Assembly: GCF_964355755.1 (NCBI RefSeq)
Contig: NC_092677.1
Span: 27,639,175-27,703,174 of the forward strand
Direction of reading: 5' to 3'
DNA: 64,000 bases
DNA from: Antedon mediterranea
Lineage: Eukaryota; Animalia; Echinodermata
Position numbers and translations under genes: made by a program. Under the pieces are notes generated by a model, which saw only the letters and a program-made list of their open reading frames with translations, ran no database searches and was not told where the DNA came from. This document shows, in pieces, positions 20,681 to 63,784 of the stretch. How positions within the stretch are numbered: the stretch's first letter is position 1; each line of letters starts with the position of its first letter.

Positions 20681-20705
20681 TTACGTGTAGTAGTAGTTAC
20701 GTCCT

Positions 20706-26555: not shown

Positions 26556-27392
26556 TCATTCAACTGTTCTAACTGGTGATCCAGGCGAGAACGTTTTTTT
26601 ATACCAGAACTGGTATGTTAATAACCATATGACAATAGCAATCACGGCAGCTATGATCTTTTCCAAAAAGGTATGAAAATAAACAGCAGTACACAACAAC
26701 ATCCAAACCCACAAACAACACAATAGTAACAACAGAATAGCAAATATATAAATTAGTGGTGGTAGTATTTTTGACAACCATTTCTTGTTGCGATCTGTAG
26801 AATATTTATATTTACAAATTGCATTCATTGATCGCAGTTCTTCTAATATTGTCAGCATACTGTGCATTAGTATAAAAGTATGCCCTGAGATGTCGAAGCC
26901 TTTCCAGTTGGATTCAGCGTGTACACAGGATTTCTTTGTAGCAAAACCTTCTGCATCACAAGCTCCGGTCGCCTGTTCAATAGCTAAAAATAGATTCACA
27001 GTAATATACCAAAAGAATGTTGCAATCGCTAAGCGCAAACCATCTTTAAGTACTAAATACCATTGTTTATCACATGTAAGAAGACCAGATAAAACCATGT
27101 AGGGGGTCAAAAAGCATAAAGTCCAACCCCATCCCCACTTGACAAATACTTGATTGAAGAGGTTTTGAGGGTTCGAGAAGATAGAGTCTGGTGCTACATT
27201 TAGTTCGTAAACTATAGAACCTATAAACACAATGAAGAAAAGAAAGAATACAGTCTTTTCTGGGCGAAGCATTCCCAATGTCATGTCATCAAATGAGCAA
27301 GTTGTTTCGTCGTTGTTTGGCGGTGAAACTTCATCATTCGCTCGTCGTGTCTTCATTTTTGGTTTCCGATGTCTTGTCATCCTAGAAGGCAT
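26556..27392 (-). CDS. FITM2: Fat storage-inducing transmembrane protein (FIT family, acyl-CoA diphosphatase), single coding exon
   Basis: FSNPQNLFNQVFVKWGWGWT, GFDISGHTFILMHSMLTILEE and TAVYFHTFLEK motifs with both catalytic His residues; multiple TM segments; first ATG at 27392. Confidence 0.92.
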   Translation of the reverse strand: MPSRMTRHRKPKMKTRRANDEVSPPNNDETTCSFDDMTLGMLRPEKTVFFLFFIVFIGSIVYELNVAPDSIFSNPQNLFNQVFVKWGWGWTLCFLTPYMVLSGLLTCDKQWYLVLKDGLRLAIATFFWYITVNLFLAIEQATGACDAEGFATKKSCVHAESNWKGFDISGHTFILMHSMLTILEELRSMNAICKYKYSTDRNKKWLSKILPPLIYIFAILLLLLCCLWVWMLLCTAVYFHTFLEKIIAAVIAIVIWLLTYQFWYKKTFSPGSPVRTVE

Positions 27393-27784
27393 TATAATAT
27401 ATCCTGTCAATTTTAGTAAATATAAGTCACAATTTAACGGTAGAAAACAAGAAATATCACGTTGTATTCTTGATACGTGTTGTTGTGTTGATTCCTATGG
27501 AAAGGTCATGTGAGGGATATTATTCATACCATTTTGGTAGGTTGAAATATGCCCGGCTAATGCCCACAACTTTCTAATATACAAGCATTTTTTATTGAAT
27601 TAAATAATTATTATTTTATGTTTATCACATGGAACCAAATTAAACTCAAATAAGATAATTTTAAGTCTATATAAACAATTCAATAATGTTTAAAATTAAT
27701 TTATACAGAGCTATATTGTTATAATTTTCTTATGTTTGGAATGAACTAATATTTAGGTTTATGACGTGCAACAAATGTTAAATT

Positions 27785-28825: not shown

Positions 28826-34829
<6,004 letters not shown>

Positions 34830-38330: not shown

Positions 38331-40105
38331 TTAGAAGCATTTTCTATGAACGACTTCCGGACCCGTTTCGTCGTATTCCGCTTTTGTGATCCACATCGAA
38401 TCGAATGACGACAGCGACGACAAGATCGATCCGCCGATCCAGACCGAGAACTTTCGCTCGGGTGGCGCAACGACTTTAACTTTCATTGTACTGGGCGCCA
38501 ACTTTTGTAATTCTTTCTCCATACGTTCTGGCATTCCTTCAAACATAGAGCTTCCTCCTGATTGGCAGACGTTCGCGTAAAGATCTTTTCGGATATCGAT
38601 GTCACACTTCATAATTGAGTTGTAAGATGTCTGGTGTAAGCCGACCGCTTCCAGACCTAAAGAGTAATGTCAAATCACAAGTAACTTATTTTTATTTTAA
38701 AAATAATGTGCTTAACTTGAAAAAAAATTGTATTTAAACGGTCAAGGCCTACTTACAAAGTCATGAGGTGTACTTACCGAGCATCGGCGGATCAAAAAAT
38801 ACTTCTGGACATCTGAATCGTTCGTTACCAACCGTTATCACCTGTCCATCAGGTAGTTCGTACGTTTTCTCAATTTTGCTGACTTTACCGTTCATTTCCG
38901 TGTCGAAATTTTTTGCGACGTAACACAATTTTTCTTTTATATCCTTTACGATTTCTCTTTCGGCTAAAAGTAAGAAAATAACAAATTCACGGATAAAGAA
39001 GTGATAGCGCCCCTTACGCCCATAGGAATAGACAACTTGTTTATTTGTAAAAGTTGGTGAAAATCCTGTTACCTGTTGTTGTAAATGAATATCCTCTTTC
39101 TGTCAAGATTTTCATCATATACTCCGTGAGATCTCTGCCTGCAAGATCTAGCCTCAAGATAGCATGAGGAAGAGCGTATCCCTCATAAATGGGTACGGTG
39201 TGGGAGACACCGTCACCGGAGTCGAGAACGATTCCGGTCGTTCTTCCTGACGCATATAAAGCTAACACGGCCTGGATACCTACGTACATGTTTGGTGTGT
39301 TAAATGTCTCAAACATTATCTATGTTACGTGAAATCAAGAAAAGTATATATGATGTTTAATTCATTACATGTAATATGATGAAAAGAAAAATGGTTTAGC
39401 TTTTAAATGTAAGCTATTTATGTATATTTTATTTCAATACCGGTACCGTCACAAATATTATTACAAACTTTTCAATACCTGCGTCATTTTTTCACGGTTT
39501 GCTTTCGGATTGAGTGGTGCCTCAGTTAATAAGACGTTATGCTCTTCAGGCGCAACTCTGAGTTCGTTGTTGAACACGTGCTTCCATACACGCTCCATAT
39601 CATCCCAGTTTGTAACGATTCCATGTTCAATTGGATACTGTTGAGCAAATAAAAACCAAAATATGCAAACATGTGAAAACAGTTATGGGATTAAGAACAA
39701 GGCCAATAGCCATAAGTCGCGTGCTAAAACGCATAGTGATACCGGACCGACAGACAGACCGACCGACCGACATAGTGAACTATAGAGTCGCGTCCATGCG
39801 ACTAAAAAGCATGGCAATCTTTTAAAGATTCTAAATTCTATCTAGGCCTAGCCTAGGCCTGGCTTAATTAATATTTATTACTACAAGATGTGTTGTACCT
39901 TCATTGTAAGCATGCCTCTTTTGCTTTGCGCTTCATCACCTACGTATGCATCCTTGGTACCAACACCGACCATAACACTGCGATGTCGTGGTCGACCTAC
40001 GATTGCTGGGAAGATTGCTCTTGGACTGTCATCTCCAGCAAACCCTGCCTTGATCATTCCACTTCCATTATCAATAACGATCGCTGCTGAATCACTATCA
40101 CACAT
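38331..40105 (-). CDS. Divergent actin (374 aa)
   Basis: Exons 40105-39899, 39637-39479, 39319-39073, 38963-38778, 38656-38331; [31 protein letters not shown] and HRKCF retained, with many non-conservative changes. Confidence 0.93.
39696..39808 (-). mobile_element. DINE-1/HINE-like (Helentron-associated) short element
   Basis: TAGTCGC.TGGACGCGACT hairpin, (GAC[AC])n microsatellite, T-rich flanks; near-identical inverted copy at 45893-46004. Confidence 0.65.
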
Positions 40106-41233
40106 TTTTGATTTTGAATTTTATCCCAATTTTTTTTATTGAATACTTAAGCCCATTTTAAGCCTACCTAAATGTGAAAGACGTTGTGCCCAAGAAGATT
40201 GAGTTTAGAACTTTTCACAACAAACTTTGGAATACACGCGCGATTGTTGCTAGGACGTTTGCGTGCAGAGCGGGCGCGCAAAAATTACGCGTACCTCAGT
40301 ATTCTAATCATCTAACAAATTATTTCACGTGATTTTCAAATTGTTTATTGCCATAACAACAGAACTATTCCTCTCATTAATTTATTTTACTTGCAAAACT
40401 ACCGTCGTATTGTTCATCAATGATACCTAATATCGAGAAGTTATATATAGCGCGCGTGTGCATATTTGTCACAATTAAATGATTTATTCTTTCTCTTTTG
40501 TGGAGAAAGCCAAATTTATTTCGAATTTCAATGTCTTTAGGCTTACCAATCAAAATGTATTGTTGTCTTATCAATAATATGATTTTGTACTGTAATATCT
40601 ATTACATTCTTTAAAATAAAAAGATAGGCCTAGATACATTGTTATTTTATAGTTTATTTGGAAAATGGGGTAATTTTGTGAAATGTCTTTGATACTAACA
40701 GTAATTCTTAATATTGTAACCACACCCTCTTTCGGAAACATACGACTCCTATAAAACAACATTACTAGCCAGTCTGGCAATTTTGTAATGTCTATACATG
40801 GATATCATTATCTTGAAGATAAATTTACGTTTCTAAAAACGCACCGTGCTAATAAATACATGTATTGTCGGTCCTGTTTAAAATTGAATGTAAGAGAAGA
40901 CATCATCTTTAAAACAGGTTTGTTCTCTGTTTCCTTGGTCGGCTCACTCCTCTTCCGCAACCGGAAACTGTCTTTGGGTCATTTACTTCTAAATATGGTT
41001 ATCGCTTATAGACGTGTTGAATATTCATACCTTGATAACGCGGAACATGAGTGACGTAACAGTTTTACAAGGTTTCGGTAGATGTTACAACGTTGTCAGG
41101 GCAAAGGTCATGGTTCGCTTCAATCGTTTCCATTCGACCGAACGAACAATCGTTATTGGTTTTACAAAAGCAACAGTTCAGTTCTGTGGACGTAGTAGAA
41201 ATTCGCCGGTATTCGCTGAAATTACATTCAAAC

Positions 41234-44200
41234 ATGAGTACTTTAAATAAAGAAGAGGTTTGTACCGCATACGAAGATGTTAGAGCGGATGATACAGAAA
41301 CAACATGGTGAGTAACGCTCTTTTAACGTTTTAAATTCCGGGTTTTAATTCACTATCTGTAGATAGAATTAGATACTAGATACCGTTGGATTGGTGTGTA
41401 CTTAAGTTGACATATTGCACCTGCTTTCGTTATTTTAGTACCTGTACCGGTAGTAAGCAACCCCACCTCAAATACAATAAATAAAACTGTACTGTCATTT
41501 AATGTAATGTATTCGACTTAAACTGACAAAATTATTCAATTTAATGATGATAATTTTGAAGATTGTGTTGTTTTATAATGTACCGCCGGTTGTTACGCCC
41601 TGTAATTAAACTGACGGATGTACTATTGAACCCGGTACAACTGGCTTGTAAATACTATCTTATCACTATATAATTAAACTATTTATATAATATATACATT
41701 GTTTACATTAAAAAACGTACGAACATACAGTACTTATAGTTTCTTTTTATTCCAGGCTTATATGTAGATATAATGAAAAGGAAATTGGTGTGTCCGGAAC
41801 TGGTACTGACATTGAAGAGTGTTTCAACCAATTAACAGGTATGTTGCATGTTTCCAACCATTTACCATTACAGTATTATGTTATAATAATATTGAAATAA
41901 TATAGTTTTCAAATTGACTAGATTTCATCCTTACTGATTCGAAATTACACCCTCTGTATAAATATGATCTTATTAATTAAATTGATAACATATCACCATG
42001 GAGTAATTTACTCCATCCATGCTATCACAAGTTCCTAGAATTCAACACATTTACAGACATAAAGTAATCATTCGGCCTATTGTCCAGTGCTCTTTTTTAT
42101 CTTTTACAATTGAAATGTGTGAATGTTGTTTACTTATTTCTTTAAGTATATAAATTCAAAGTCCTTCAATCAGCCTCTTGCAATTGCTAACCCCCTCGCA
42201 ACCAGGGTTACGTACCCTCTGAATAGGTAGCAATTATCTCCTCGTTGTCATGTCGACGATCAATCTCTCTTTCTACCCTTTTCGTCTTGTTACACCTGTA
42301 GTGAAGATTTCATATTATAATTGTTAATAAAATACATTATTATTATCGTATTACAAATTGTAAAAGTCAATATTAAGTCAAATTCGATGATATAATGTAC
42401 TATATATATAGGCCTATAAAGCATCAATTTAAATAGTAGGCCTATAGTGTGATTGTGAAATGAATGAATGATATAATGAAAGAGACCATCAACGCAGCAA
42501 ACCTTGAATCATTGTTCACACCCGTTTGTTAGGCGCAGCAGCATTGTTTAAAGGCACGGTTCATTCAATAGTTTCTAATTGTGAAACAGCCGTTTTTTGT
42601 TAGGTAATGTAGATCCCATTTTAATGGTATTTATTGTGATTGTATTGTATGAATAAGCCTCTATGCATTGATGACGTGAGTTTCCTTTTGTGAATGACGT
42701 CACCAGACGCCCGACAAACAACAAGTTCACGCGCGCGTATTAAATCTGATGAATCTTGATTATGGGCTTCATTTTAATTGTCAAACAACAGAAAGAAAAT
42801 AATTCAAATTTAACTCATGAACAACAATAGTTTGTGGTCTAAATATTACATAAAATTTAACAACCTGACTGTATAAAATCTTTTATGTGTTTTACGAGTG
42901 AGTAGTGATAAACTGTGTAGAGGATTATACAGCCTAGGCCTATACTTTGTCATCGCCTGATCGCTGTTACATGATAAAAGCGAAAGATATTGATTACCAA
43001 ATTGCCAAAATAGCTTTTACTTTTAATATAATGAGCTTTTTAATGATACATTTTAGCATAATAAATTGTGAAAGTATTTAATTAATTGACCATACTGTCG
43101 TGGCACAAAAATGGTCTACAGATTTTGGCTTTTGTTCAGATTGATCATGTTTCAGACATTTTTCCTTGAGCTGTTGAAAGAATAAAATCATAAAATATTA
43201 AGTGGTAATAGATGTTGATTGGTTAGCAACACGCCTTGTCATATTCCATATTAGGGTATGGTATGCAAGTCGTTATACGAGCTACGGTTTACTTTAGTTC
43301 CGGTATCTTTACTTCCGGGGTTTGTAGCAATAGAGGTGGTTACGGCTGACAGAAACCAACAATGTCTTGATTAATTAATGTGGTTTTTATTATTTTATTA
43401 TGTGGTGATTTGTTCTTGTTGGAAAACAACTGTACATTTCGATAATTATTGTTCAAATATGCTGTTCTAAATTCCATATTTGGTACTCAACGTGATTTAT
43501 TACATTCATAGGCCTACTGGATTAGAATCTGCTCTACTACTACTACATATAGGCCTACAGACAATAAGTTTCAGGAATATTTTCAGTGGCGCTTTAAATG
43601 TAATTCAAAGTATATCTGTGTACTCGATTAAACCAAATGTCACGTATACATGCTGTGTGTGCTGGGTATTTTTACATGGTAATCATGTTAGCCACTACTA
43701 AAATACAAGGAACTGTTCTTTCCATTATATATCCACCCAAGTCCTAATTCCTAAATTCTTATTTGAAATTCTTATTTGAAATTGAACCCAAAACCCCTAT
43801 TGGGAGAGTAATCGTAGGTCATGGCTTGTCAGGACCATACAAATAATAAAGATAATAATTATATTGCAACGCGTTCCATGTTACCAAGCAGTTGTGCGTA
43901 ATTTGACGCGCGCGTTAAAAGCAAATGCGCGTGAATAACATGATAAAACGCTACGCGCGCGTGTTTTCTATGAGACGCTAGTTGTTTTTGCATTTTAATA
44001 CTAATTTCTAATGCTAATACTATACCGTAATAGAGAGAGAGACTGTGTCTACTCTAGTTTTAAACAATTTAATAATTTTGTTTTTTCAGATGACGAGAGG
44101 GCATTTATATATATTAGACTAGAAACTGGAGACGAGATGAGCAAGCGAGCAAAGTTTGCATTTATCACGTGGATAGGACCCGATGTTGGGGCATTGAAGA

Positions 44201-44485
44201 AGGCTAAGACCAGTACAGATAAAGCCACTGTAAAGAAAGTAGTATCGGTAAGTTGCCCCGGCAGATTCAGGCCTACCTATGATATTTGAATTGTTTAGTG
44301 CGTTATAATCTTTTAATCCAATTATAAATTAGAAGGGTATTTGTTAATAATTTGTTTTAAATTATTTGTTTTAGATTTTTGCTAAAGAGTTCCTAGTTGA
44401 TACTAAACATGATTTGAACTTAGGAAGAATTGAGGAAGAAGTAAGAAAGGCAGGAGGTGCTAATTATGGCACTGGCAGTCGATAA
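41234..44485 (+). CDS. COTL1: Coactosin-like protein (ADF-H domain)
   Basis: Exons 41234-41307, 41756-41838, 44090-44247, 44375-44485; AYEDVRAD, RLETGDEMSKRAKFAFITWIG and RKAGGANY motifs. Confidence 0.92.
43246..43483. promoter_or_regulatory. Candidate SRF/ETS enhancer in coactosin intron 2
   Basis: CArG boxes CCATATTAGG 43246-43255 and CCATATTTGG 43474-43483; ETS core ACTTCCGG 43311-43318. Confidence 0.45.
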
Positions 44486-45892
44486 AATAAACAACGTTAC
44501 GTCATCATTACGTATTTTAATCATTTTTCTTCAGTTTCTCAAACATTATTATTGATTTTTCGATTGCGTGACGCCGGGTAATACTAGTGATTACAATGGC
44601 GTCACGGACATTTTGCGCATGCGCCCCATGATTGGAATTTCAGAATTGTTATAGATGCACAAGCTATCATGACATCGATATGTTTGTGGGCATGCACCAG
44701 TGTTCGCTACGTCATAAGTGTTTTCGGCAATCGGCGGAAAGTACACCAAGTCGAATTGATTATGGCTTAGTCGTTCTATTTTCCATGAATGTGTCTCGTG
44801 TATTAACTGTGCGCGTTATGCGTTTGGTGTTTCAATGCGTATATATCTTGTACGCGTTGAATCCAGAACACAGATACGATACATGGACGCAGAAACATTC
44901 AACAACACATCATTTACAATTACATTCGAAATGTTTTTCTTTACATCTTTTTCTCGTAGTAGATAGATGATGATGATGAACACAGACAGAATTCGGACCT
45001 TTGCGAAGCCTTATGATGAGTGAAAATTAATAGTCTTTGTGTAGCTTTAAAGACGACCATTGTATTTTATTTTTTAACAGAATAGTGTCATGTAGAGATA
45101 ATGAGGCCTAAAATGTAAATTCATGTTATTGTTTGAGACCAAACAAATGACCAATACTCAATGTAATCAATGTGTTTTCAATAAAAGGTATACTTATTTT
45201 ATAAATTGAACACAAGTGATCATTTTGTATTAGGTGACAAATAGTGATAATGTTTAGTTTTGTTTTGTGTCCATTGATTTTATATAATTTTAAGCAAATT
45301 GTAGGCGCGCGTAAAATGCATGTTTTGCACGCGCACATCGCTGCAACAAACATTTTTGTTTACAGATCAATTTCAAACATCATTCAAAACTAATGGCCAA
45401 AATGTGCTCAAATTAACAATTAATTATATTAATATAAAAACTATCCGTATTTATTGTAATTATAAACGGTGCGATTTAAAATTAGCAATAAACTTTATAT
45501 ACATTTATCATTTGTGTGTTGTATGTGTTTTGTGGATATATACATTGTAAGGAGACACGGTGTGAGTTTTATTTCAGATTTAGCGTTCATGCTGTTTTGG
45601 ATAATTTGAACTTTTGCACCGCGAGTCTCTTTTCCATACGGTTATTTCAAGATGATTTTTGCATATTTCAATAGCGAGCTATTCGCAGCCTCGGTAAAAG
45701 AACTGTGAATCGACCAAATGCAATCCCGGAATTAACAGAAGGGTGTATATTGTATTTGTTTTAATTCACATTTATTCAGCAATATAACAAATTACATTAC
45801 AGGGATTTTACAGAGACAAGTAATTGTCTGTAGTCGTAAGACCCTTTAGAAAAAAAAATATTATCACAAAGGAAAAAAAACATGAAAACAGT

Positions 45893-46131: not shown

Positions 46132-47295
46132 TTAAAATAGAAATAACTGAAAACCATCGATCCTCGACATTGCTTTTAGGCTGGTCAGCAATATCAACAT
46201 ATCAAAACGTTCGGTTTGCTCGAGTTGGAGATCATCTAATAACGCATTAAAGCACGCCTCCTCTAGGTAAGGCTCTGTCGTCTCCGCAGTTCTGTTCATA
46301 ATATTGAGTCGTCCAAATTTGTTAACAATTGCAACTAAGCGAGAAGGATGATATTCGATGTCGAAACCTAGCGGACTTAAAAATGTAACCACTTTTCGAA
46401 GTTTGTCTATGAAATGTTGACGCATTGATAAATCACCAGCACTTTCAACATCTATCATCGTTGTCATAGTAAGTAATGTGTAACCGTAGAAACGTCTTTT
46501 ACTGTTTTTTTGGTCAGTCATTCTGAAAATGTAGGAGACTATTCGACGATCGAGTTGGAAAGCTATCTCACCAATTATTCTCAACTTTAATTCTCTTTCT
46601 TCTTGAGTACCTTGACTTAAAGACGCCGCGGAAGCGCCTAAACTAAAATCAGTTCTCGTCAGAGGGCGCTTGTCTATATACTCCATTTCAGTTAATGCAG
46701 ATGCATCTGATAGTCTACTTCTTGAGGAGGTCTCATTCATTATATTTTTCTTAGGAGTAGAATGTATTTTGGGCTGAAATGTCTCTGTGTAAGATCTGTC
46801 AGTTTGATCACGTGATTTGTGATTTGTTTCTCTGATTGGTTGAGTGTTTTTAAATATAGGTATACTACAATCACATGTTATTCCTTCAACTGCATGCGCG
46901 CATTGTTTAGATTTATTTTCATAAACAATTGTAGAAAGTTCCTTTTGTGGAATACTGCAACATGTTTCTCCATTATTTTCTATAAAAAGATATTTATAAC
47001 ATTTTATTTCTTAGTTATTATTAATCGGCGCTTTGATATATACTGCAATATAGTGATACACAGATTTTCGATATTATCACTTACCTCTAGAAATGTTCAA
47101 TCGTTTTCCAGACATCCAACTTGCAAGAACACTAATCAAAGTTGCTGATTTCAAATCAGAATTTTCTTTCAGCAATTCCAGTTGAGATTTTAAAGAACGA
47201 TTTTCCTCTTGTAGTAATGCGTTTGTTTCGTTGACTAATTTGTTTGATAAAACAAAGCCACTACTTTTTTCACCTTTATTGTTAAATGTGGACAT
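46132..47295 (-). CDS. SPATC1L: Speriolin-like protein (SPATC1/SPATC1L family), ~352 aa
   Basis: Exons 47295-47085 and 46979-46132 in frame; N-terminal coiled coil LQEENRSLKSQLELLKENSDLK; C-terminal RIIGEIAFQLDRRIVSYIF..RFYGYT..DGFQLFLF matches the speriolin C domain as recalled. Confidence 0.85.
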
Positions 47296-47400
47296 TTTAC
47301 AGAATATTTACGTCACGCCAAATGAATACTATTAAAACCATTATTTTGTTTTACTTACTATGAACGTACGTCCGCCGTACAGTACAAATAAAAACTGCGT

Positions 47401-49997: not shown

Positions 49998-50183
49998 AAA
50001 TACTTGACAAATAAACCACAATGCTAAAAATGTCCCGGATCCAGCCACGTGCCTTTACACTTTCAATCTTCAGTCAAGTTATTCTTTACATGTAAAGAAT
50101 AACTTGACTGAAGATTGAAAGTGTAAAGGCACGTGGCTGGATCCGGGAAATGTTTAGCATTGTGGTTTATTTGTCAAGTATTT
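49998..50183. repeat. 186-bp spacerless palindrome
   Basis: 93-bp arms centred on TTACA|TGTAA (50090/50091) with two mismatches. Confidence 0.95.
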
Positions 50184-50518
50184 TTTACTACACTACATAA
50201 AATTATTACGAGTACAAATAACGGGAAATAACGATGGTAAAGTTAAATTGATCGTAATTACAACAAAGATGACCTGTTAAGTGCATACACCGATCCATCG
50301 ATAGACCTGCTCAGCAATGAACGATGGCATCGTTCATGGGAACACGTCGACAACGTATTTCATACGGTATGCTGTATACATATATAATATTGTGTGATAT
50401 GAGCCGATATATCCAAATTCAACGTCACAGAACATATGAGAAATAATCTTTTCTATTATTTAATATAAATAGGCCTATATATTGTATTTTCAGTAAAGTA
50501 AAAGACACGAAATCCAAA

Positions 50519-52277
50519 ATGCCGGCTGAGCCAAGCGATAAAGAGAAAGAAGAGAAGATGAAAGAACTCCTGTACCGGATGCAAGACGTTGAAGATGACG
50601 AAGGATTTGCAAAAATGGAAAATACGTAAGAAATCATTTTGTTACAACTTAACAGACGCGTGGCAACGCACAAGGAAGTGCGTGAGCGCAACGCAAGTAA
50701 TTTGACCATTCACAAGCGGTAGATCATTATCCGAATTATCGCTTGTCATTAACCAACTTGTTTGCGTTGCCCTTACGCCCTTTCATGCGTTGCGTCTCAT
50801 AAGGGCAGGAGTTGACGTTGAAGTTTGTAACAAAACCACTTTTTAGATATCGTTTTATTTATTATCCGGTAGCTGGAATATATTTTGAAGCTGTTAAATT
50901 TATATTTTTCTTTTACAGCCGGATGCGGTACTTAGTAGGATATGAGTGGGACTTAGAAGAAGCCGAAATCCGCTTACGAGATACCGTTCAATGGAGAAAA
51001 GAACGGCGTCCTCTTGAGGCAGACTGTAAATATTGTGAGGATCAGCCTGGATTTCATGCTTGGGTAGGTTTTATATATCTTTATAATTTATGTGTTGCAT
51101 AAAATTACATAATGTATTGTAATATTGTATAAATAAAAAGTAATCATAATAATAACATATTGAATTTTTAATTATGTATACATATTATGTATACATATTA
51201 TGTATACGTATTTTACCTTACGTATAGCGTCAAGTTGGTCACGACAAGACTGGTAGACCTGTCATTTACTCATGCTTTGCACAAGCCTCAACTCAGCACT
51301 ATACAGCCGAGGATAATGTACAGCATTTATTACATTTGGCCGAGAACGCCAAGAGAAGTATGTTACAAGACGCTTGCAGATGGGTGTGGGTCCTTGATGT
51401 AACAGGTAGGCCAATGTTAAAACAATTATCAGCAGCACATGAAAAAAGAAACCCATAAATTTACGCGCGCGTTCACAAAGTTCTCTTTTCATCAGCGGGT
51501 GCACGCGCAAGTCAACGTGTGTTTATTTTTCATGGTACGTACATGTCAATCCTGTTAATTGCGTGCAATACGGTAAGATTTTAAATGTTCAATAGGCACA
51601 ACTCAAGTCAGTTGACCAATTAAAGGCGACATTTCAATCCGTCTCGTCGTGATTGTCAAATTACCTACTTGTATTGTGGTAGTTTGTTTATGGTAGTATT
51701 AATGTTGACACTGTGATTGTTTTTAGGAATGACCCTATCTGCTTGTAATCCACGTCTGGGTAGCGCCGTCAACTCTGTGATAGCTACCCACTACACTGAA
51801 CGTCTTGGAAACGTAATCATTGTGAACCATGGGTGGTTGTTTGAAGGTGCTTGGAAGGCCATTAAGATATTCGTACACAAAAATACGCTAGCTAAAGCTA
51901 GGCTAGCCAGAGGTGACAACAAAATCGAAAAATGTTTCGAGGAATTCTTTGACCCAAGTCTGACACGGTGGTTTTTGCAAGAACTACGATTAAACAAGCA
52001 CAAACCGATGTTGCCTTCACAAAAGTCATTCTGGAAACCACCAGATGATCCAGACTCACATGATCCACGCGGCTGTCCAGACTATGTCAGGAATTACTTG
52101 GATCCATATTACAGACAAGTTGTTTGTAAACAGACGGGAATGTCCAGGGACGAACTACCAAAGACGCCACCTATGCACGAACCTCATCCTAACTATGTCC
52201 AAGATATGCGTGAGCGCGCCAAAAGACAACAGTCACGAAATCAAGACGATGAAGAAGATATTAACCAAGATTGGTGA
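50519..52277 (+). CDS. CRAL-TRIO (SEC14-like) lipid-binding domain protein
   Basis: Exons 50519-50625, 50919-51063, 51228-51405, 51727-52277; RYLVGYEWDLEEA..LRDTVQWRKE, GHDKTGRPVIY, WVWVLDVTG, HYTERLG..IVN and WKAIKIFVHKNT motifs. Confidence 0.87.
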
Positions 52278-53495
52278 TTGAACTTATAAATACACACCTC
52301 TCTTTAATCAACCAAGAAGAGTGATTGGATGAATATACACATTTTCGCGTACTGTATATACGCGCGCGTATCCGTTCTAGCTTAATGCGCGCCTAGTCTA
52401 GAGAGTAACTGCAACTGCACTCAATGCAAACGTGCCGTCTAATCTTAATCAGGTTGGTTCACCGGCCAACTGTACTCAACTACGCGTCTACGCTAACGCC
52501 AGTGATTCTTCGATTGTGATTGGTTGTTTGCAGCCGCGAATTTAAGTGGAAAATTAATAATTATTTTAGCAAAGAAATTTACAAATCACCACAATGGTGC
52601 TTGAGTTTTTGTGTGATACTGCTGCTGCGGCTGATGAAGTGAGAATTATGTTTAATTAGCTCAAGACTTTTCCTTGATTTGTGCAATAATCAAATATACA
52701 ATTTATATACGTGTTTAACGAAATTTATAAATTAGATATTTATAAGTGATTTTGTAAAATTATAATAAAAGATAATTTTAAACAATCATTTGACACGTCA
52801 ATTCATTTTAGTAAATGTCTCTCAAAATGCGATTTTTTATCGTTAGGAACAGTGTACGGTAAAATTAGGTAATGAAAACCGTGGTGCGGAAAAAGTATAT
52901 ACCGGTATTGAACAATTTGAACAACTATAAAAAAGAGAAATGGCAACCTTTGGACTGTTTACCCAGTCTCAATAGGTCGCCCCTCTAAACCTATCAAGCC
53001 TCTGATGAAGTTTTATATCATTATAATAACTAACCAGTGTTAGTACAGCCTCAATTGATTTATGTTGAATGCGTCCGTAAAATATTCGTATTTTGTTGTT
53101 GGCTCTATGAAAGAGATTTAATTGTGCACGGAGGAGGAAACCTGTCACAAAATAATTCGAGTTCACACACAAACCTTCATTATTATAATATACGCTCTGA
53201 ACTTGTCCATTGTTTGAACAACAGAATGGAAATACCCCAGTATACGTTGTGCTTTTGTGCCGGTAATGCGAAAGAAAATTCTAGAATCGCAGTTATTATA
53301 TAATAATTGTTAAGCGTAAATATAGTAACAAAACGTAGGTGTTCTTTATCAAGACGAATGTCTAGGCATGCGCACTAGTAGTATGAACAACTGAATGTTT
53401 TTGTAGAAATAAACAAGGAAATTAAATAGAAGAAATACAATAATGTTATAAATTCAATGTAGACTGGAATAACTAATTCCTCCTCTGTGTTATCA

Positions 53496-53530: not shown

Positions 53531-54410
53531 ACACTGCTATTTTTGCTGTGGTTTCCAATTAACAATACAACGTAGGCTAAAAGAAATCATTGATTCGTAT
53601 TGTCTTCATGTCTCGGAAGTATAACCGAGCAAAGAATTGCTGTACTGGGTGTGTAAGATACATGGTAGGTTCTGTAGTCCCTGTTAAACAAACTAGGTTT
53701 ATTGGTATTAATATAGGCAGGTAATTTGAAGAAGACTGTATAGCAGCCGGTAGATCATATCCTAAGCATGGCTTTATAAGCGGCTAAATTTGACTGTAGC
53801 TCGTTCTTTGTCAATGACGAAATTATAGTTGTTGCGAAACCGATAGTCAGAAATATGCTGAATGTCCTAAAAGAGAAATTGTAAGTATATGGTATTCTAA
53901 GCAACAATAGCTAAGCTTGGTCCACAACCGGGAATACATGGACATACACTATTCTTGAGTTTTTGCTGTTGCCAACACTCATGTTGGAAATTCCATGTTT
54001 TTCGTTTATTGTGTGCAGACATAACACTATAGTGGCGAATGTACCATGAGAAAAATCGATTTTCTCTGAATTCAAACACCTACCAAAATGCCTCCACCAT
54101 TAAATATAATGGACTGTCGAACCGGCATGACATTTATTTATATTTTATTTAAGCTTACGTCATTATTTTCAATTATTAATACATTCTGAATTTAAATGTT
54201 TCATATGCACATTTTCAAATGTAGAGTCCGAGAAATTGGCGGGTGATATAGGATATCGTTCCGGTAGGTAACATGCCATTTTATTCCTATTTTGATTGAC
54301 CTACTGTACTCAATAATTAAGAGCCTGAAAGAACGAAGTCAACAATATTCGAGTTACAAATTGACATTACGGACAACACGAACTTAGACCGAGGCGTCGA
54401 AAAGGAAACA

Positions 54411-57400
54411 ATGGGCCAAAACCACACGGGCCTTAGCGAACCAAGCTCAGATGAAGAAAAAAGGAAAACTACAAAGAACAAAAACGGAGGGAAAACAAGT
54501 GAGAAACAGAAGAAAAAATTGTCAATAAAATCTATGAAAAGATCTATGAAACGTAGCAAAGATCAACCTGAATCTTTACAAGAAGCAACAAAACCAGCAA
54601 ACACATTTGAAAATAAATGTTCGGAAGATAGGAGAGAGGAGTCGGATGTTGCATCTTCTACGTCAGAGCAATATTTGTCGTCTGCTAAATGCCGAGAATC
54701 AGAGAGCGGAGTGACGTCATCACCTAAAGATTCGTCAACGACAAATAAACCAGATGTCAAAGGTGAATACGAACTACACATAATATTCAGTGCTTACAAT
54801 TAAGGGCAGTATATATTAAGACTTATTTTCGTAAAAAATAGGGTTTGTGATACATTTCAGATATTACCTAACTGAGGCCTTATCATTTCAGAAAAAGATT
54901 TGTCTTCAAATGATTGTCAGGCGAAGATGGAGTCACACGTTGATACACAAATGCATACTATTGACATGAATATAGGACATCTTCCAATCATCAGAATTGA
55001 CCCAACTCAGAAGAAGCAGAAGAAACAAGCTGGAGAAGACATAACACGTGCTTTAACAGATGAGGTCACTAATGACTCAAACGTTGATACAGGTAGGTTG
55101 GAATTTAGTGTACTACTGTTAAGCCTAAAATAAACTAAAAATGTTCAGTTGACGTCACTACAAAGATTATTTCAAACTAACCAATCTCTGTTTTCAAAAC
55201 AGACATGTGTGAGACATGTGGAATCAAGAATGGCACAATGTCCTGTGATGTATGTGAACATTCCAGATGTGATAGTTGTGATAAAAAGTGGCACAACAAT
55301 CCGAAAAGAAGAAGTCATCAACGAAGATCTAAAAAAGAATCCTTGAATAAATCTATTGAAATAAAAGATAATTCTGATACAGGAGAAACTGAAAATGAAA
55401 CAGAAGTGAATGGAATTAAGGACAATACTGACACATTATGTGAGACATGTGGGGTTAAGGTTGGTACCATGACTTGTGATGTATGTGGGAATTCTAGATG
55501 TGATAGTTGTGATAAAAAGTGGCACAACAATCCCAAACGAAGAACTCATCAACGAACAGAAACTTTAAATAAATCTATTGAAATGAAGGAGCATTCTGAT
55601 ACAGGAAAAGCTGCAAAAGAACCAGAGTTAAATGGAACGAGGAAAGAGAGCCTAAAAGAAAATGAAAGTTTAGAAAAGTCATTGAAATCGGAAGAAGTTC
55701 AACAAAGAGGACAAAGTGTACCATTAAACAGCATTGAAATGCGATTAGAGCAAAAGAATTTAGAAAATATTGGACGTAATTATCCTGAATTAAAAAATTA
55801 CGCAAATGTTCCTGAAGTATCTCACGAAAATGGTAGAGATAAATCGGATGTCTTTCAACCAAATCAGATGAGTACATGTTACAGGTCAGATAACGAAGAA
55901 CTGTTAGGTGACAATAGCCAAGGTAAAAACGAAATACATAAGCCTAACATTTAGATATAACATGTTTAATTCAGTTCAAATAGACAGAAACAACAACTGG
56001 ATATGTTTAACAAATACTAAATGTTTATTTTATATAAAAGATGAGCTGTGTGTGCTCTGTGGTGTTGAAAAAGCTAGTATTCCGTGTCAACAGTGTGGTG
56101 ACGCAAGATGCGTTCAATGTGACGCAAAATGGCATCGGCACAAAAACAGGAACAAACATATCAGGAACAAGACGCAAGTTTTGCAAGAGATTGCTGATGG
56201 AAATCCTAAGAAAGATACAGCCTCGACGGCGGAAGAGTGTGAACCAGGAATCAAGAAAAATGATGAAAGAACCAACAAAACTGAATACCAAGAAAATGAA
56301 AATGATTTTGACAAACCGACTGAGTTTGGTAATTTAACTTTTTACATTTACATATTTGGTAGATTTTATAGTCAAGTCTGTAACGAAAAGAAGACGTGCT
56401 TAGATACGATAGAGCTTTTGTACGGCGCATGCGTTATATTTGTATCTTGGATGCAGATCAATGGATTTAACTTCGTTGTTGTACTGGTGATAGAAGTAAT
56501 AATTTTGTACTTTAAGCTGTTTTAATGTGATTAAAATGATTTCATTATTTTGTTTTTATCAAAACAGACATTTTTACTGAAGGCCTTACTACTCCAGAAA
56601 AAGCTTTATCTTTAAATGACCGTCAAACGAAAGCGGATTCACATATTGATACACAAAAACATACTATAGACATGAATATAGGACCTCTTCCAATCATCAG
56701 AATTGACCCAACTCAGAAGCAGAAGAAACAAACTGCAGAAGGTATGACACGTCAAGGTTTAACAGATGAGGTCACTAATGACTCAAACGTTGATACAGGT
56801 AGGTTAGAAAATATTTTCTGCAGTTAACGTCATTTCAAAGATTGTTTTACAAGTTAACCAATCTCTCTTAATTAAAGTAACTAAATATAACGTTTTATTC
56901 CAAACAGACATATTATGTGAGACATGTGGAGTAAAGAATGGCACGATTTCCTGTGATATATGTGAAAATTTCAGATGTGATAGTTGTGATAAAAAGTGGC
57001 ATAACCACTCCAATAGAAGAACTCATCAACCAAGACCTCGAAGGGAAACATTGAATAAAACTACTATTGAAACGGAAGAGAATTCTAAAAGAGAAGAAAC
57101 TGCAGAAGAACTAGAGTTGAATGAAATGACAGAAGAGAGCATAAAAGAAAATGTTGCAAACGTTGGACATTTCGAAAGTTTCGAAAAATCATTAAAATCG
57201 GAAAATAAAAAAGTTCAACAAAGAGGACAAAGTGTACCATTGAGCAGTAACATTGAAGTAAACTTAGAGCAAAAGAATTTAGAAAATATTGGACGTAATT
57301 ATCCTGAATTTGAAAATTACGCAACAGTTTCTGAATTATCTCACGAAAATTGTAGAGATAAATCAAATATCTTGCAACCAAATCAGATAAGTACAAGTTA

Positions 57401-60400
57401 CACACCAGATAACGAAAAACTTTTAGGCGACAACATTCAAGGTAAAAATGAATTACATAACATTTAGATTGTATATGACAGAGTATAGTTTAGTAATTAA
57501 AGATATACATCAACAATTGGATATGTTTCTCACACTTTTTTTTCTTATTTTAAAAGATGAGCCGTGTGTTCTCTGTGGTGTTGAAAAAGCTATTATTCCG
57601 TGTCAACAGTGTGGTGACGCAAGATGCGTTCAGTGTGACGCAAAATGGCATCGGCACAAAAACAGGAACAAACATATCAGGAACAAGACGCAAGTTTTGA
57701 AAGAGATTGCTGATGGAAATTCTAAGAAAGATACAGCCTCAGCGGTGGAGTGTGAACCAGAAATCAAGCAAGAAACAACAAACGAAACTGAAAACCAAGA
57801 AAATGATTTCGACAAAACAAACAAAACAGGTATTTCAATAATTGACATTTATATTTGGCAGGTTTAATAGTCGAGTACTTAGTAACGCCTTTTTAATATG
57901 ATAACTATATTATTTCATTCATTAACATTTAACAAAAATCAAAACAACAACTTAATTGAGGCCTTTCCATTTCAGAAAAAGCTTTGAATGACTGTCAGGC
58001 GATGATGGAGTCACACGTTGATACACATATGCATACTATTGACATGAATATAGGACATCTTACAAACATCAGAATTGACCCAACTCAGAAGCAAGCTGAA
58101 GAAGACATGACACGTCAAGCTTTAATAGATGAGGTCACCAGTAAAGAAGCAAAATTTGATGAAGGTTGGTTTGGAGTTTATACCTATATTAGAATATTAA
58201 AGCTTATGTACCTCTGTATACGTCTCTCCAAATAAAATTTATGAAGATAATTATAAGAATTTTAATAACGTGTTTTTTTTTAAAATAAAAAACAGACACA
58301 ATTTGTGATACATGTGGAGTTAAGGTTGGTACAATGACTTGTGATGAATGTGAAAATTCCAGATGTGATAGTTGTGATCAAAAGTGGCACAACCATTCAA
58401 AAAGAAGAACTCATCAACGAAGACATCGAAAGGAAACATTGAATAAAACTACTATTGGAGGAATGGAAGAGAATTTGGATAGAGGAGAACCAGAGTTGAA
58501 AGGAATGAAAAAGGACAGCGTCAAAGAAGCCTTTGTGAACTTTGGAAATTCGGAAAATTTAGAAAAGTCATTGAAATCGAAGGAAAATAAAGAAATTCAA
58601 CAACGTGTGACATTGCACAACATTGAAATGAGCTTAAACCAAATGCATTCAGAAAATATTGTGATCAAATCGTTTAAAAATGATCCAATTGTATGTGAAG
58701 ACATTGCCGACAGTAGAGGTAATGTCGATGTCAAACTGGACACGACACCCAGAGGTTATAGGTCAAACAGTATTGAAATGCAATTGGACCAAATGAATTC
58801 AGAAAATGTTGGAGGTAATCCTGAATTTAAAAACTACCAAAAGGGTCCTGAATTATTTCCCAGAAATGGTGGAGATACATCGGATGTCTTGCAACCAAAT
58901 CAGACAAGTACAGGTTATAGGTCAGATAATGAAGATATTCAAGGTAAAAATGAAATACATTATTATACCAGTATACAATTGATATGTTTCCCACAAATGA
59001 TAATGGTTTGTTTTATTGTTTTTAAAAGATGAGCCGTGTGTTCTCTGTGGTATTGAAAAAGCTAGTATTCCGTGTCAACAGTGTGGTGACGCAAGATGCG
59101 TTCAATGCGACGCAAAATGGCATCGACACAAAAACAGGAACAAACATATCAGGAACAAGGCGCAAGTTTTGCAAGAGGTTGCTGATGGAAATCCTAAGAA
59201 AGATACAGCCTCAACGACGGAGTGTAAACCAGAAATAAAAAAAAATGATAAAGAAACAAAAGGAGGAACTGAATGCAAAGATAATGAAAATGATTTTGAC
59301 AAACCGACAAAAGGTAAAGGGTCATTTTTTCTGAATTGTGAAAACTGTTTTGTTTATAAAAAAAACAAAAAAACAAGAGGAAAATGTTTGTTATCATGCT
59401 AAGAAAATGTAATAAAGAAAGTATGTTTATTTTGAATTGTTCCTTATGATTGAAGCATAGGTTACCGTACCATTTAGGAATATACTATTCTAGATCTCAA
59501 TTATTTATTGTATTATTATGTTAAAGAACCATGTGTTCTTTGTGGTGTCGATGACGCAATTATCCACTGTGACGAGTGTGGTGACGCAAGATGTATAAAA
59601 TGTGACACGAAATGGCATCGACACAAGAAGAGAAATTCACATAAACGAAACCAGCCTCCTTCTAATATCGAAGGTATAATAGGTTACAGCAGCACTATTA
59701 CACTACCTAACATAATGCCAGAAAAGGAGTTCAGTGATCCTGGAATCGGAGACGGTGAGTTGTTCCTTATACCAAGATATATTAGGCCTACTTATGAACT
59801 GATGATTGAAATGCGCATATAATCGCGCTTTCGTTTCAAGAGAATAAATTCTTCAGTTGCCAAAAACAGACTTCAATGCATGTTATTTGTTCATTGCAGA
59901 GATTGAACCATGTGGCATTTGTGGCAAGGAAGATGGAGCTATTATTTGCAATGAATGTGTATATATTTTCTGTAAAATTTGCGATGAAAAATATCATCAT
60001 CATAAAGATAGAAAGACACACGAAAGAAGACACAAAGGTAACAACAATTTGTTAACAAAATATAATTTTAATTGTATCCGTAATCTATAAGACAAAACGA
60101 GTATATATATGAATATACGCATGCGTATAATCCAAGCGGCTTTGGGTTCGCGTGCTAATGAATTCACCTCGTGTGGAGAACAGCTTAAACTTTGTGTTGA
60201 CCGCAAAATAGTCCGTTTTTCAGTTAATATTATATTGACATCTTACAGAAAGTAACCAGAAAATATCGGACAGAGTTGAAAATAATCTGAATCAGCCGGA
60301 AACGATGCCAGTTGGCATAAACGAGGTTTCCCAAAAACTAAAATCCGATTATGAAGTTGTAACGGAGAAAATCAACGCATTGGAATTAAGATTACAACAT

Positions 60401-62172
60401 ATGGACTACAAAGGGGATGAAGAACGCAAAGATATAGAAGGCGAACATAAGGAATTATTACGAAAAAGGCAATTACTTATGGTACGAATAGAAGCTGTTG
60501 ATGCTATTGAGAACACATCACATTCAAGCCATGCTGGTAGCACTTCTCTAAACACCTGGACGACCAAAAGTGAAGTTGCTAAATCTGATAAACCTCGAGT
60601 CGTTTCTGGAAGGTCATCACTACGATATGTCATAGATCACGACGTTGAAACAGATGGTCCCGTTGAATACGAAAACGGTAAGAACAAAATAAATAATGAA
60701 TTTGAACTCATTATTCAGTAGTACCGAAAATACGAAAATAGCACAATATTGTGCGTTGTTGTTGATAATTAAGGAGATTCTGTATACTTTAGTCGACTCA
60801 CGCTGAAAACAAGTACAGCATTTCTTATTATTTAATTTCAGTAGCAAATCAACAACATGACTCTTCGATGCAAGATGACGTAATGATGCAGGTTAGTTCA
60901 ACTTGACATGAACATATGGAATATACAGAATAATATAGAACATTAAAATACCAAATCTTTAATGGCGTCAATTATTTAAAATCAAATAATATAAATATTT
61001 TTCATTTTAAGGAGGCGAGAAATCAGGGTTTTGATTCAGATGATATACGAATTGCCAAAGAGCAATGTAAACAATCTGGTTGTAATTTTGTTCAATGGTT
61101 AAAATTCAATTATAAGGCGTTTATTGCCGAAGTATGTAAATCCGTAACAAATGAACTTCATCAGTTAATACCAGGAGTCCGAATTGCAGAAGCCTCGGTG
61201 ATACGGTCACTAGTAAAGTACCCCGGTGACGTGAACAGAGCAAAAGCAACGTGTGTTCGTAAATTCGAGGCTCAGGTAGGGACTCACTTATTTTTGCAAT
61301 AGCATAGTTCTTGGTGAAACTAAAGACAGTTTGACCATAGAAAGTAACTTGATTTGATAGACGCGCTATATAAATAGTCGCGCGCGTACGTAAGATGTTA
61401 GTACGGTACTTTAAAAATAAGGTGTCATCATAATAATTAAATGTTACGCAGTCGCAGGTAAACTAAAAATAAATAAAATTTAATTATTGTAGATTTGCGA
61501 GATCCTTCAATTCGAGTTTAGAAAAGACAGTCATAAACTTACTATGCACGAGGTTTCACAGTATCTGTACAAATGCAACGGTGATGTGGATAAGGTAATG
61601 GCGATGATTAAAACAGACGGCTACAAGCTTGACATTGCGGAGAGAATTTGGAAGTATGAAGACGAGATTGAGTCTGTATCTGTTCTATTGAAGAAACCAG
61701 AAGATTTTCAACAAGAAGAGGTGCGGATAACTTATTAAAACTTGGTTCTTAATTGACGCACGGAATGGCGTACGCGCAACGCAAGTGAATCGACCAATCA
61801 CAAGGGACAGATTGATCCATTGCGTCGTGATTGGTTAGTTTACTTGCATTGCGCTTACGTCCTTACGTACGACCTAGTTGAAACCAAGCTTAAAAGATCG
61901 AGATCCAACATAACAAGTTATTGTTTGCTCAACAAATACTAATGTATGTTTTAAGTGCTAGATTTCCATTTATTTACTTTATATTGTTTTGACAGAGACA
62001 CAAACGCTTGATAATGGCGGAGTTTGACCTGACCTGGGATGTAGCATCTAGATTGTTTGATAAGATTCAGGCGCATCGGCGGAATACAAAGACTGACGAC
62101 AGTGAATTCAGTAGATGGGTACTGAATACACTGCGCTACGCATCGAAACACAGAACAAATCCGACAAAATAA
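54411..62172 (+). CDS. HOIP/RNF31-like protein with nine B-boxes, coiled coil and HOIP-type UBA region, no RBR seen (~1,734 aa if all exons are used)
   Basis: Exons 54411-54762, 54892-55092, 55203-55922, 56041-56328, 56598-56798, 56908-57441, 57557-57829, 57976-58164, 58296-58943, 59029-59313, 59527-59754, 59900-60037, 60249-60677, 60842-60891, 61012-61275, 61493-61720, 61996-62172 (TAA); B-box pattern Cx2C..Cx2C..Cx2CDxKWH..RxxH; start codon uncertain. Confidence 0.75.
61738..61891. mobile_element. MITE family B, degenerate (others near 21250-21357, 37020-37110, 47870-48030, 50650-50790)
   Basis: CTTGGTT...CGCAACGCAAG..ACCAATCACAAG...GATTGGT..CTTGC.TTGCG...AACCAAGCT. Confidence 0.7.
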
Positions 62173-63394
62173 TAATAACAATCTTTCTCCAGAAGACAAC
62201 CGAAGTCAAACGTGAAGACAGTCCAGTCCCTAGGCCTACTTTTTATTTCCTTTGAACTCACCCGGTGTACCGCAAACGTGACTTTACTAATACAACTTAT
62301 GAATGCTTCTATGATAAGTAACTTTAAAATTCAATGGAAATTCATTAATTCAATTCTTTGCTTCGGAATCTCTGGTCCATAGAAAGTAAAATTACATATA
62401 AATGAATTAACAATAATCACTCAAGACTGTAATAATTACTACTAATTGAGAGATACACTTTAGGCTTAAGAAAGTAGAAAAGTGGCAATATACTGAACGC
62501 AAATGGAAAAAAACGCAGCATGTAGTAAAATACGATACGATAGAGTAAACATGCCAAAAAAACCTTTAAAAAACTTATATATCGATATAATTATATTTAG
62601 GCCTATGTCTGAGCCATCTTATAATTGATATGCTGTAGTTAACAATAGTTATTTTATTAGTTGCCTATCTACAAAATGATCTATTTCGAAAACAATGTTA
62701 TTTATTTCGATAATGGTTTCTTAAATACAAAAATAATATTAATATAGGTCTATTCAATTAAAAAATATGAGCATAATTTCATTACGTAATCGTAAAATAA
62801 ATAAGAAAATAATAAATATATGTGTACCTGGATGATGTCAATAATTATCTCATACAAAAAAAAAACAAAACAAAAAGAGCAGCAGCGTGCAAAACATGGT
62901 AGACATTTTTGTATTGTAGAAGATTGAGGTAGGTTTCAGCTACTATTTTCAGCTTGATTAGGTTGATAAATAATATTTCTTACTGAATGTTTTAAAAGTG
63001 TATGAGACCGTTCGGACTTTACAGTTTACACATGTAATGGTCGCATGAGGTGTAAATTTTGAGATATAGGCCTAAGGAACAATTTGAACGCGTAAAAAGG
63101 TGTAAATGTAAATTTTTGTCCCTAGAGTAATTTAGGTTATACATGTGTATTTGATTTTAAAATCTGAACACAGCTCAATTGAGTTTAAAGTCCGAGCACA
63201 GCCCCCGAGTAATTTATGTTAAACGTGTAATCGAGTTTAAAGTCCGAACACAACCTTCAAGAGATAAAATGCTATATTTTTAAGCCACAGTCCTAGTAAA
63301 AATATGACCTTTTTAAGTTTTCTAATGAAATTCATTATACCATCGTACAAAAATAAAACATTGTTGTCAATGAAATATTATGACATGAAATCAC

Positions 63395-63625
63395 CAACAA
63401 GCGAACCGTGTGTAAAACAGACCAATCAAAAGTATAAGTGAGTGAAATACAGCCGCGTCAACAAGCGAACCGTGTGCAAAATAGACTGTTCGACTATCAT
63501 ACAACCATTTTAACTGATAACAGGCGAACGTTGCTGGTTGAAAAAGTTGATGAACGAACTCACGAAGAAGCGAACCGTGTGCAAAACAGACTGTTTTAAC
63601 TGAGGAACAGACGAACGGTGTGTTA
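63395..63625. repeat. Local imperfect direct repeats
   Basis: AAGCGAACCGTGTG(T/C)AAAA(C/T)AGAC near 63399, 63463 and 63568. Confidence 0.7.
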
Positions 63626-63784
63626 AAGATGTAATGTGAGATTTTTAAGTGCAAATTAAAATTAAAAGGTAATTGATGATAATACATGTCCGTTTAAACA
63701 ACTGGTGTGGACAAAACGTACCTATGGTGATATGTAGCCTTTGTACTCATGACCATGAACTTGGTCCATGGTACCATCATTAAT

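Follow-up and report, generated by a model that had tools for sequence, protein, structure and literature searches.

An RBR-less HOIP-like gene with nine B-boxes in the feather star Antedon mediterranea: a candidate multivalent scaffold

Gene structure and transcript evidence

A stretch of 64,000 nucleotides from contig NC_092677.1 of the feather star Antedon mediterranea (assembly GCF_964355755.1, positions 27,639,175 to 27,703,174 of the forward strand; hereafter the window, within which all positions are counted) contains a gene related to the ubiquitin ligase HOIP (RNF31). Its product carries nine B-boxes and a HOIP-type UBA region, and stops where the catalytic RBR region of HOIP would begin; a non-catalytic scaffold is the reading favoured here. 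The coding region (54411..62172, plus strand; RefSeq XP_071957741-744) consists of 17 exons, which were joined by script into one frame of 1744 residues with a single stop codon, TAA, at 62170-62172. The exon boundaries, placed by AG and GT signals, are 54411-54762, 54892-55092, 55203-55922, 56041-56328, 56568-56798 and 56908-57441 for exons 1-6, 57557-57829, 57976-58164, 58296-58943, 59029-59313, 59527-59754 and 59900-60037 for exons 7-12, and 60249-60677, 60842-60891, 61012-61275, 61493-61720 and 61996-62172 for exons 13-17. All 16 introns are of the GT-AG type and measure 85-275 bases. The 1744-residue model equals RefSeq XP_071957741/742 (Antedon mediterranea, isoform X1) letter for letter; the product is named 'uncharacterized' there and belongs to a protein cluster with three isoforms. 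Exon 15, used as a search query, returned one protein, identical across the query.

Five sequencing runs contain the 3' part of the gene, with a share of its words of 0.56 in the run termed X1 and 0.99 in the other four. None is on record as RNA; GT-AG joints and empty introns, both missing from the DNA runs X2 and X4, are the reason for treating X1 as RNA. The expression data are the contigs of this one run, from one study, and rare isoforms drop out of contigs. Run X1 shows 14 listed GT-AG joints that are not in the DNA run, 12 of which coincide exactly with modelled introns (12 of the 16). Two X1 joints, 55092>56908 (exon 2 to exon 6) and 57441>59029 (exon 6 to exon 10), skip repeat units in frame. 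With only 22-24 letters on their short sides, these joints were most probably misplaced among repeats that are almost identical, and are less likely to be true skipping isoforms.

The 5' leader is transcribed (54244..54410, plus strand), as part of an unspliced X1 contig covering 54244-54760, and has an in-frame TAA upstream of the ATG; the stop-free frame around the ATG starts at 54321. A longer N-terminus via upstream exons (52595, 52848, 54224) was dropped in view of this unspliced contig, the in-frame stop and the RefSeq start at 54411. At the other end, a 1864-nt X1 contig extends from exon 10 through exon 17 and continues, unspliced, past a weak donor at 62118 and the stop codon up to 62391. 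A second contig spans 62381-63694, and depth is 0 beyond 63796, where the DNA run continues. The 3' untranslated region (62173..63694, plus strand; contigs 61994-62391 and 62381-63694) is about 1.5 kb long, with ATTAAA signals at 63655 and 63661. Since the transcript passes unspliced through the stop into this region, no RBR exons follow. There is no joint at the 62118 donor in X1, and the five acceptor-led frames downstream, each of at least 20 residues, all contain one Cys at most. High-copy repeats are present at about 61770-61810 and 62362-62416. The original prediction, made from the letters of the window, had proposed a 17-exon frame with this TAA; the open frame, the 16/16 GT-AG introns and the identical RefSeq protein bear it out, spliced X1 contigs show that the locus is transcribed, and splicing from 62118 or 61720 to distant RBR exons is contradicted by the contig that leads from exon 10 through exon 17 and past the stop.

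It is very improbable that the gene is an artefact or in decay, whether as a pseudogene or because a HOIP was mis-annotated and only its N-terminal portion is seen here. Such a reading could draw on the single transcript run, in a contig form that loses rare transcripts, and on the coding differences in X1, of which 12 of 14 alter a residue. Nevertheless, 11 of these 12 lie outside the B-boxes and none in exons 13-17, the stop leads unspliced into a 1.5-kb untranslated region, a separate full HOIP exists, the same end point recurs in a second species, and the 5.2-kb frame is open and under purifying selection.

The UBA region, the missing ligase and descent

The HOIP double-UBA core is encoded by exons 15-16 (61012..61720, plus strand). 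On Pfam PF16678 (UBA_HOIP), which has a cut-off of 22.4, the last 225 residues of the protein reach 49.3 bits and exon 15 by itself 40.3 bits. Exon 15 alone matched no HOIP structure by phmmer; a profile of the region did, and its sole significant matches in the PDB were 5Y3T, 4DBG and 5X0W, at about 2e-17 or better. For an AlphaFold2 model of the UBA region (predicted local distance difference test, pLDDT, 84.6), Foldseek placed HOIP UBA chains at every rank from 1 to 8. The coding part of exon 17 (61996..62172, plus strand) aligns with the HOIP segment before RING1 and is modelled as a helical bundle, which gave no score on Pfam UBA_RNF31; the start of this third bundle is kept in the paralogue, and the TAA falls where RING1 would start.

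Profiles for PUB, NZF, RING1 and RING2-LDD, built from six true HOIPs, gave no match in any of the six reading frames across the window. In this protein and its RBR-less counterpart from the crinoid Anneissia japonica they detected no PUB, NZF or RING1, and RING2-LDD at noise level only (4.2 and -0.1 bits). IBR scores land on B-boxes only. The Pfam IBR family (PF01485) reaches 46.8 bits against a cut-off of 24.3, summed over six stretches that are all B-boxes, and this call is a cross-match, a false RBR signal. Over its full length the protein gives no score with any RING family, so the TRIM layout (RING, B-box, coiled coil) is not present. An amphiphysin-type Arg-Pro motif occurs in three echinoderm HOIPs and in neither paralogue, and the Antedon protein is without any PxxP. 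PUB binds OTULIN and SPATA2, and HOIP is, to our knowledge, the only known writer of M1-linked ubiquitin. Without RING1-IBR-RING2-LDD there is, by established knowledge, no M1-chain synthesis, and the paralogue, of HOIP descent yet lacking the defining RBR-LDD, is not a HOIP ligase. The transcript end, the empty RING1 and noise-level RING2-LDD profiles and the agreement of Pfam, PDB profile and fold on a HOIP-type UBA thus uphold the original prediction of an RBR-less, catalytically dead HOIP paralogue, including its claim that PUB and NZF are missing.

A HMMER search over 1.84 billion representatives gave seven matches, all of them HOIP-family UBA proteins: the paralogue itself, the Anneissia japonica protein, the HOIPs of Antedon, Anneissia and the starfish Patiria, an amphioxus protein and a fragment of 103 residues (P0009). 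Antedon therefore has a separate full-length HOIP, XP_071958434, with PUB, B-box, UBA_HOIP, UBA_RNF31, IBR and RBR-C, as the original prediction had proposed to look for; that of Anneissia is XP_033122782, and PUB and NZF are present in both crinoid HOIPs. The RBR-less orthologue of Anneissia, LOC117121669, has 1680 residues, is 58% identical and ends right after the UBA region; it has four isoforms, eight pattern-matching and one to two decayed B-boxes, and no RBR. B-box, hairpin, UBA pair and third bundle follow in collinear order in paralogue and HOIP, and within each species the two genes lie on contigs of equal size (28,587,047 and 1,915,095), which points to linkage.

In a tree of 11 UBA regions, from which P0009 (it could not be placed) and the half-length P0018 were left out, the two RBR-less proteins group together (100/100) and have the crinoid HOIPs as their neighbours (85/85), with a long stem branch of 1.58 and short tips of 0.36 and 0.42. 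A duplication in Antedon only was rejected (approximately unbiased test, p-AU 2e-07), as was a joint origin with RBR-less amphioxus models (p-AU 0.008). An origin before the crinoid-starfish split was not rejected (p-AU 0.11), and the duplication may thus be older than that split; a longer UBA2 loop, present in all four crinoid proteins and not in starfish, amphioxus or mouse, favours a crinoid origin. The tree and the seven HOIP-family matches support descent of the paralogue from HOIP. Searches for further orthologues gave 0 of 785 among proteins of 119-394 residues, which does not show absence, and a word-index search with wider alignment gave nine hits among 7998 scored, a crowded result that likewise does not show absence.

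UBA identity between the two crinoids is higher for the paralogues (124/216, 57%) than for the HOIPs (107/234, 46%), and the UBA region is therefore constrained. The kept UBA fold and this constraint speak for a decoy role, in which the UBA pair would still bind the UBL of HOIL-1 and/or SHARPIN, divert them from HOIP and lower M1 ubiquitination. Mouse HOIP binds SHARPIN via helix 1 (R474, L483, V486, Q490) and HOIL-1L via helix 7 (Q607, L611, F614) (PMC6044281); these numbers were transferred via chain 5Y3T_B and alignment, in which R474 was not aligned. The positions of L485 and V486 are hydrophobic in 7/7 RBR-bearing HOIPs and D/D and D/K in the two paralogues, in which the N-terminal half of helix 1 is an acidic stretch, encoded in Antedon by exon 14 (60842..60891, plus strand; tandem acceptors 60842/60845). 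The SHARPIN set of R474, L483, V486 and Q490 is not found in the paralogues, even though Gln stands at Q490 in both, as in mouse, and Met at L483 in Antedon, which would suit a decoy; the L483 position is Asp in the other paralogue and Gln in crinoid HOIPs. In helix 7, F614 is Phe in 7/7 RBR-bearing HOIPs and Ile in both paralogues, a mild exchange, yet the same helix contains an added Gly and one inserted residue, and the AlphaFold2 model breaks it at this place. The paralogues have Lys at Q607 and Tyr or Ile at L611, two positions that vary even among true echinoderm HOIPs. The kept start of the third bundle, which in HOIP also contacts the HOIL-1L UBL according to modelling and surface plasmon resonance (PMC11322871), and the report that mouse triple mutants of either site weaken the trimeric core only slightly (PMC6044281) argue for retained binding, whereas fly LUBEL works without a HOIL-1/SHARPIN-type partner (PMC5090701). 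One mollusc is described with HOIP and HOIL-1 and no separate SHARPIN gene (PMC9334734). On balance the altered helices weaken the decoy reading, which appears unlikely and less likely than a scaffold.

The same combination of a kept UBA core and lost release sites could suggest an inhibitor acting in trans, in which the free UBA region, not releasable by UBL partners, would clamp true HOIP at its RBR, an action proposed in cis for the UBA that HOIP itself carries. The mechanism of HOIP autoinhibition is itself not established, addition of the RING1-adjacent UBA2 left the activity of the fly RBR unchanged (PMC5090701), and the nine B-boxes would be given no role beyond delivery; this possibility is improbable.

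The B-box array, its linkers and the neighbouring genes

The nine B-boxes, as counted in the original prediction, all match C-x2-C-x8-C-x2-C-x4-C-x2-C-D-x2-[WY]-H-x7-H, with the C/D/H zinc ligands kept in 9/9, and Pfam PF22586 finds nine stretches on the protein. All on the plus strand, they are located by pattern and profile at 55208..55318 (B-box 1), 55439..55549 (2), 56049..56159 (3), 56916..57026 (4), 58304..58414 (6), 59532..59642 (8) and 59911..60021 (9, the most divergent of the nine), and by pattern at 57565..57675 (5) and 59037..59147 (7). An AlphaFold2 model of B-box 8 (pLDDT 79) has CONSTANS, CYLD and TRIM28 as nearest folds (TM-scores 0.7-0.8), together with PML-B1; the query is very short, and the fold search gave no match at E 0.001. 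By sequence, a B-box matches CONSTANS at E 1e-4. The paralogue B-boxes are 35-51% identical to those of HOIP. A predicted helical hairpin or coiled coil follows the array (about residues 1390-1452; 60329..60517, plus strand). The HOIP hairpin profile gives an independent E-value (i-E) of 6e-06 on the Anneissia orthologue and only 0.16 on the Antedon protein, with a BLASTP E of 0.03, and the segment is likely homologous to the hairpin between B-box and NZF in echinoderm HOIP.

Exons 2-4, 5-7 and 8-10 constitute three tandem three-exon units (54892..59313, plus strand), which are 71-79% identical in self-BLASTN, introns included; all introns of the units are of phase 1. Among themselves, B-boxes 3, 5 and 7 show nonsynonymous divergence (dN) of 0.011-0.022 versus synonymous divergence (dS) of 0.10-0.16, and B-boxes 1, 2, 4 and 6 show dN of 0.07-0.13 versus dS of 0.25-0.81; for the linkers dN/dS is 0.36-0.76, so that the B-box repeats are constrained and the linkers far less. 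Most of the B-box tree lacks resolution, with a star on 1 of 18 branches, and apart from the recent triplication in Antedon the arrays may or may not have grown separately in the two species. The linkers between B-boxes are 40-179 residues long and likely disordered, because they are rich in acidic residues (21%) and low in hydrophobic ones (21%, versus 32% in the UBA region).

The main similarity between the linkers of the two species is a 15-residue motif, I-x-M-x-I-x-x-L-P-x-I-R-I-D, with three copies in Antedon, five in the Anneissia orthologue and none in five true HOIPs. A motif search placed the Antedon copies, on the plus strand, at 54960..55004 (residue 141), 56666..56710 (residue 554) and 58038..58082 (residue 888, Thr for Pro), and a profile of the Anneissia copies recovers all three in a nine-protein set (i-E 0.0005-0.003). 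Half-motifs of the form S/N-I-E-M/V occur five further times, in exons 3, 6 and 9. The second half of the motif resembles the calcineurin docking motif PxIxIT, in which three positions are buried and Leu at -1 is favoured (PMC6728138). The paralogue may on this ground have taken a new job outside LUBAC, the complex that assembles linear ubiquitin chains, as a scaffold for other partners such as calcineurin. Its copies offer Pro, Ile and Ile/Leu at the buried positions, with Leu at -1, and the P, I and I/L/V positions fit in two Antedon and four Anneissia copies; no copy ends in Thr, and PxIxIT leaves the first half of the motif unexplained. The loose form P-x-[IV]-x-[IVL] arises by chance about once or twice in such a protein, and was seen three times in Antedon (0.9 expected, P 0.07) and five times in Anneissia (1.4 expected, P 0.02), in copies that are not independent. 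The loss of every docking part specific to HOIP (PUB, NZF and the Arg-Pro motif), the absence of any PxxP from the Antedon protein, and the long stem branch, which suggests a change of role, would also suit a new job. The motif as a calcineurin dock may serve as a lead only, and the reading as a whole is doubtful.

Several other genes share the window. A single open reading frame (ORF) at 9974-12424 (minus strand) encodes a TRIM-NHL protein (RING, B-box, filamin and six NHL repeats), which we take to be lin-41/TRIM71-like. Two GST-fold genes arranged in tandem, with hydrophobic tails at the C-terminus and presumably GDAP1-like, occupy about 15081-24049 (minus), followed by a FIT-family (fat storage-inducing) gene at 26559-27494 (minus) and an AAA ATPase gene at 32368-34693 (plus) that we assume to be VPS4-like. 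A divergent actin gene (38334-40120, minus) stands head to head with an ADF/cofilin-fold gene (41060-44486, plus), presumably coactosin-like. An ORF with a Speriolin C-terminal domain, accompanied by a short upstream coiled-coil-like ORF, lies at 46135-47307 (minus), and a CRAL-TRIO gene (50495-52278, plus) is immediately upstream of the RBR-less paralogue. A perfect inverted repeat at 50080-50112, centred near 50095 and with arms of about 60 bases as judged by eye, is probably a small mobile element.

Possible function and comparison with known systems

The favoured reading, to which a probability of roughly 0.45 is given, is that the paralogue is a non-catalytic multivalent scaffold that would assemble through its nine B-boxes with its own kind and with true HOIP, and so tune the place and density of ligase clusters. 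It may have arisen when HOIP was duplicated locally, the copy lost its 5' and 3' exons, and units of phase-1 exons were duplicated again and again. Contacts between B-boxes strung along extended acidic linkers would provide valency, the repeated linker motif could dock a further protein, and the UBA region may have turned to a new partner, because its core is strongly conserved and its SHARPIN and HOIL-1L helices are altered. The net effect on HOIP could be either clustering and boost, or dilution by dead subunits without an OTULIN/SPATA2-binding PUB. Data from other systems are consistent with parts of this scheme. A HOIP fragment of residues 1-436, which includes B-box and NZFs, co-precipitated endogenous HOIP, and an oligomerisation module was proposed to lie within it (PMC4017264; cited for the B-box region in PMC7732508), and CYLD dimerises via its B-box (PMC5135002, PMC12722640). 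In addition, multivalent contacts and disordered regions underlie the puncta in which fly LUBEL is active, and a proline motif of echinoderm RNF31 binds amphiphysin and ties it to membrane tubules (PMC12778051). Of the two roles named in the original prediction, decoy or multivalent scaffold, the scaffold fits the anatomy, and the decoy has lost ground through D/D and D/K at L485/V486 and the change of F614 to Ile.

A number of points weigh against the scaffold reading. HOIP oligomerisation maps to a 250-residue stretch and not to the B-box itself (PMC4017264), and a 2025 review describes HOIP B-box function as not understood (PMC12722640). At their level of identity the paralogue B-boxes may no longer recognise those of HOIP. 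The dN/dS counts are based on few changes per pair, expression is known from X1 alone, one study in contig form, and equal contig sizes are the sole basis for linkage to the HOIP gene, which lies outside the 64-kb window. The break in helix 7 is at the edge of a low-confidence stretch, in a model from seven sequences with no control fold of a crinoid HOIP.

A bolder version, in which the paralogue is a pseudo-ligase partner of HOIP, is unlikely on present evidence. The nine-B-box polymer would cluster HOIP without HOIL-1 or SHARPIN and swap out PUB-bound deubiquitinases, and the PxIxIT-like motifs may recruit calcineurin, linking calcium to M1 ubiquitin. If true, a dead HOIP with a gene to itself would exist, and nature would demonstrate the purpose of the HOIP B-box. 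A protein that has lost the ligase, holds its UBA core more tightly than HOIP and has multiplied only the B-box suggests that this domain is a unit of binding and that its copy number counts. The array offers nine natural variants, in two species with their own HOIPs, as material for tests of B-box oligomerisation. Moreover, separation of the HOIP UBA region from the ligase appears to have happened repeatedly among deuterostomes (in crinoids and in amphioxus models), and automatic surveys may count the paralogue as an RBR ligase, the Pfam IBR call being above cut-off. The reach of these points is limited by the finding of the gene in two feather stars so far. No paper on a crinoid or stand-alone RBR-less HOIP paralogue appeared in the literature listings searched, which do not cover subscription papers.

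Among known systems, the paralogue shares with HOIP/RNF31 (5Y3T, 5X0W, 4DBG) the B-box type, a likely hairpin, the double UBA and the bundle behind it, arranged in one and the same succession. It differs in lacking PUB, NZF, RING1, IBR, RING2 and LDD, in having nine B-boxes instead of one or two, and in its altered UBL-binding helices, missing amphiphysin-type motif and new linker motif. The nearest folds of the repeated B-box are those of CYLD, CONSTANS, TRIM28-B1 and PML-B1; these self-assembly modules, however, have a single B-box or a pair within a folded context, compared with nine on acidic linkers of 40-179 residues. PUB is absent in fly LUBEL as well. The short isoforms of Drosophila LUBEL (three of seven annotated polypeptides without UBA2 and RBR, for which an adapter role has been guessed; PMC5090701) likewise lack the catalytic region, but are isoforms of a ligase gene with one B-box and no RING1-adjacent bundle, whereas the paralogue is a separate gene in two species, with amplified B-boxes and a bundle that is partly kept. 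In amphioxus, three unverified gene models (XP_019637933, LOC144865757 and one of B-box-like/UBA/BIR/RING type; P0008, P0017 and P0018 taken together) also have a HOIP UBA without RBR-LDD, one of them fused to BIR and RING like an IAP. These models, unlike the crinoid paralogues, nest within amphioxus HOIP, retain most of the residues that bind the partners, and lack a B-box array. RBR-less HOIP forms as such are thus already known, from fly isoforms and amphioxus models, and the crinoid case adds a separate gene with a B-box array, kept in two species.

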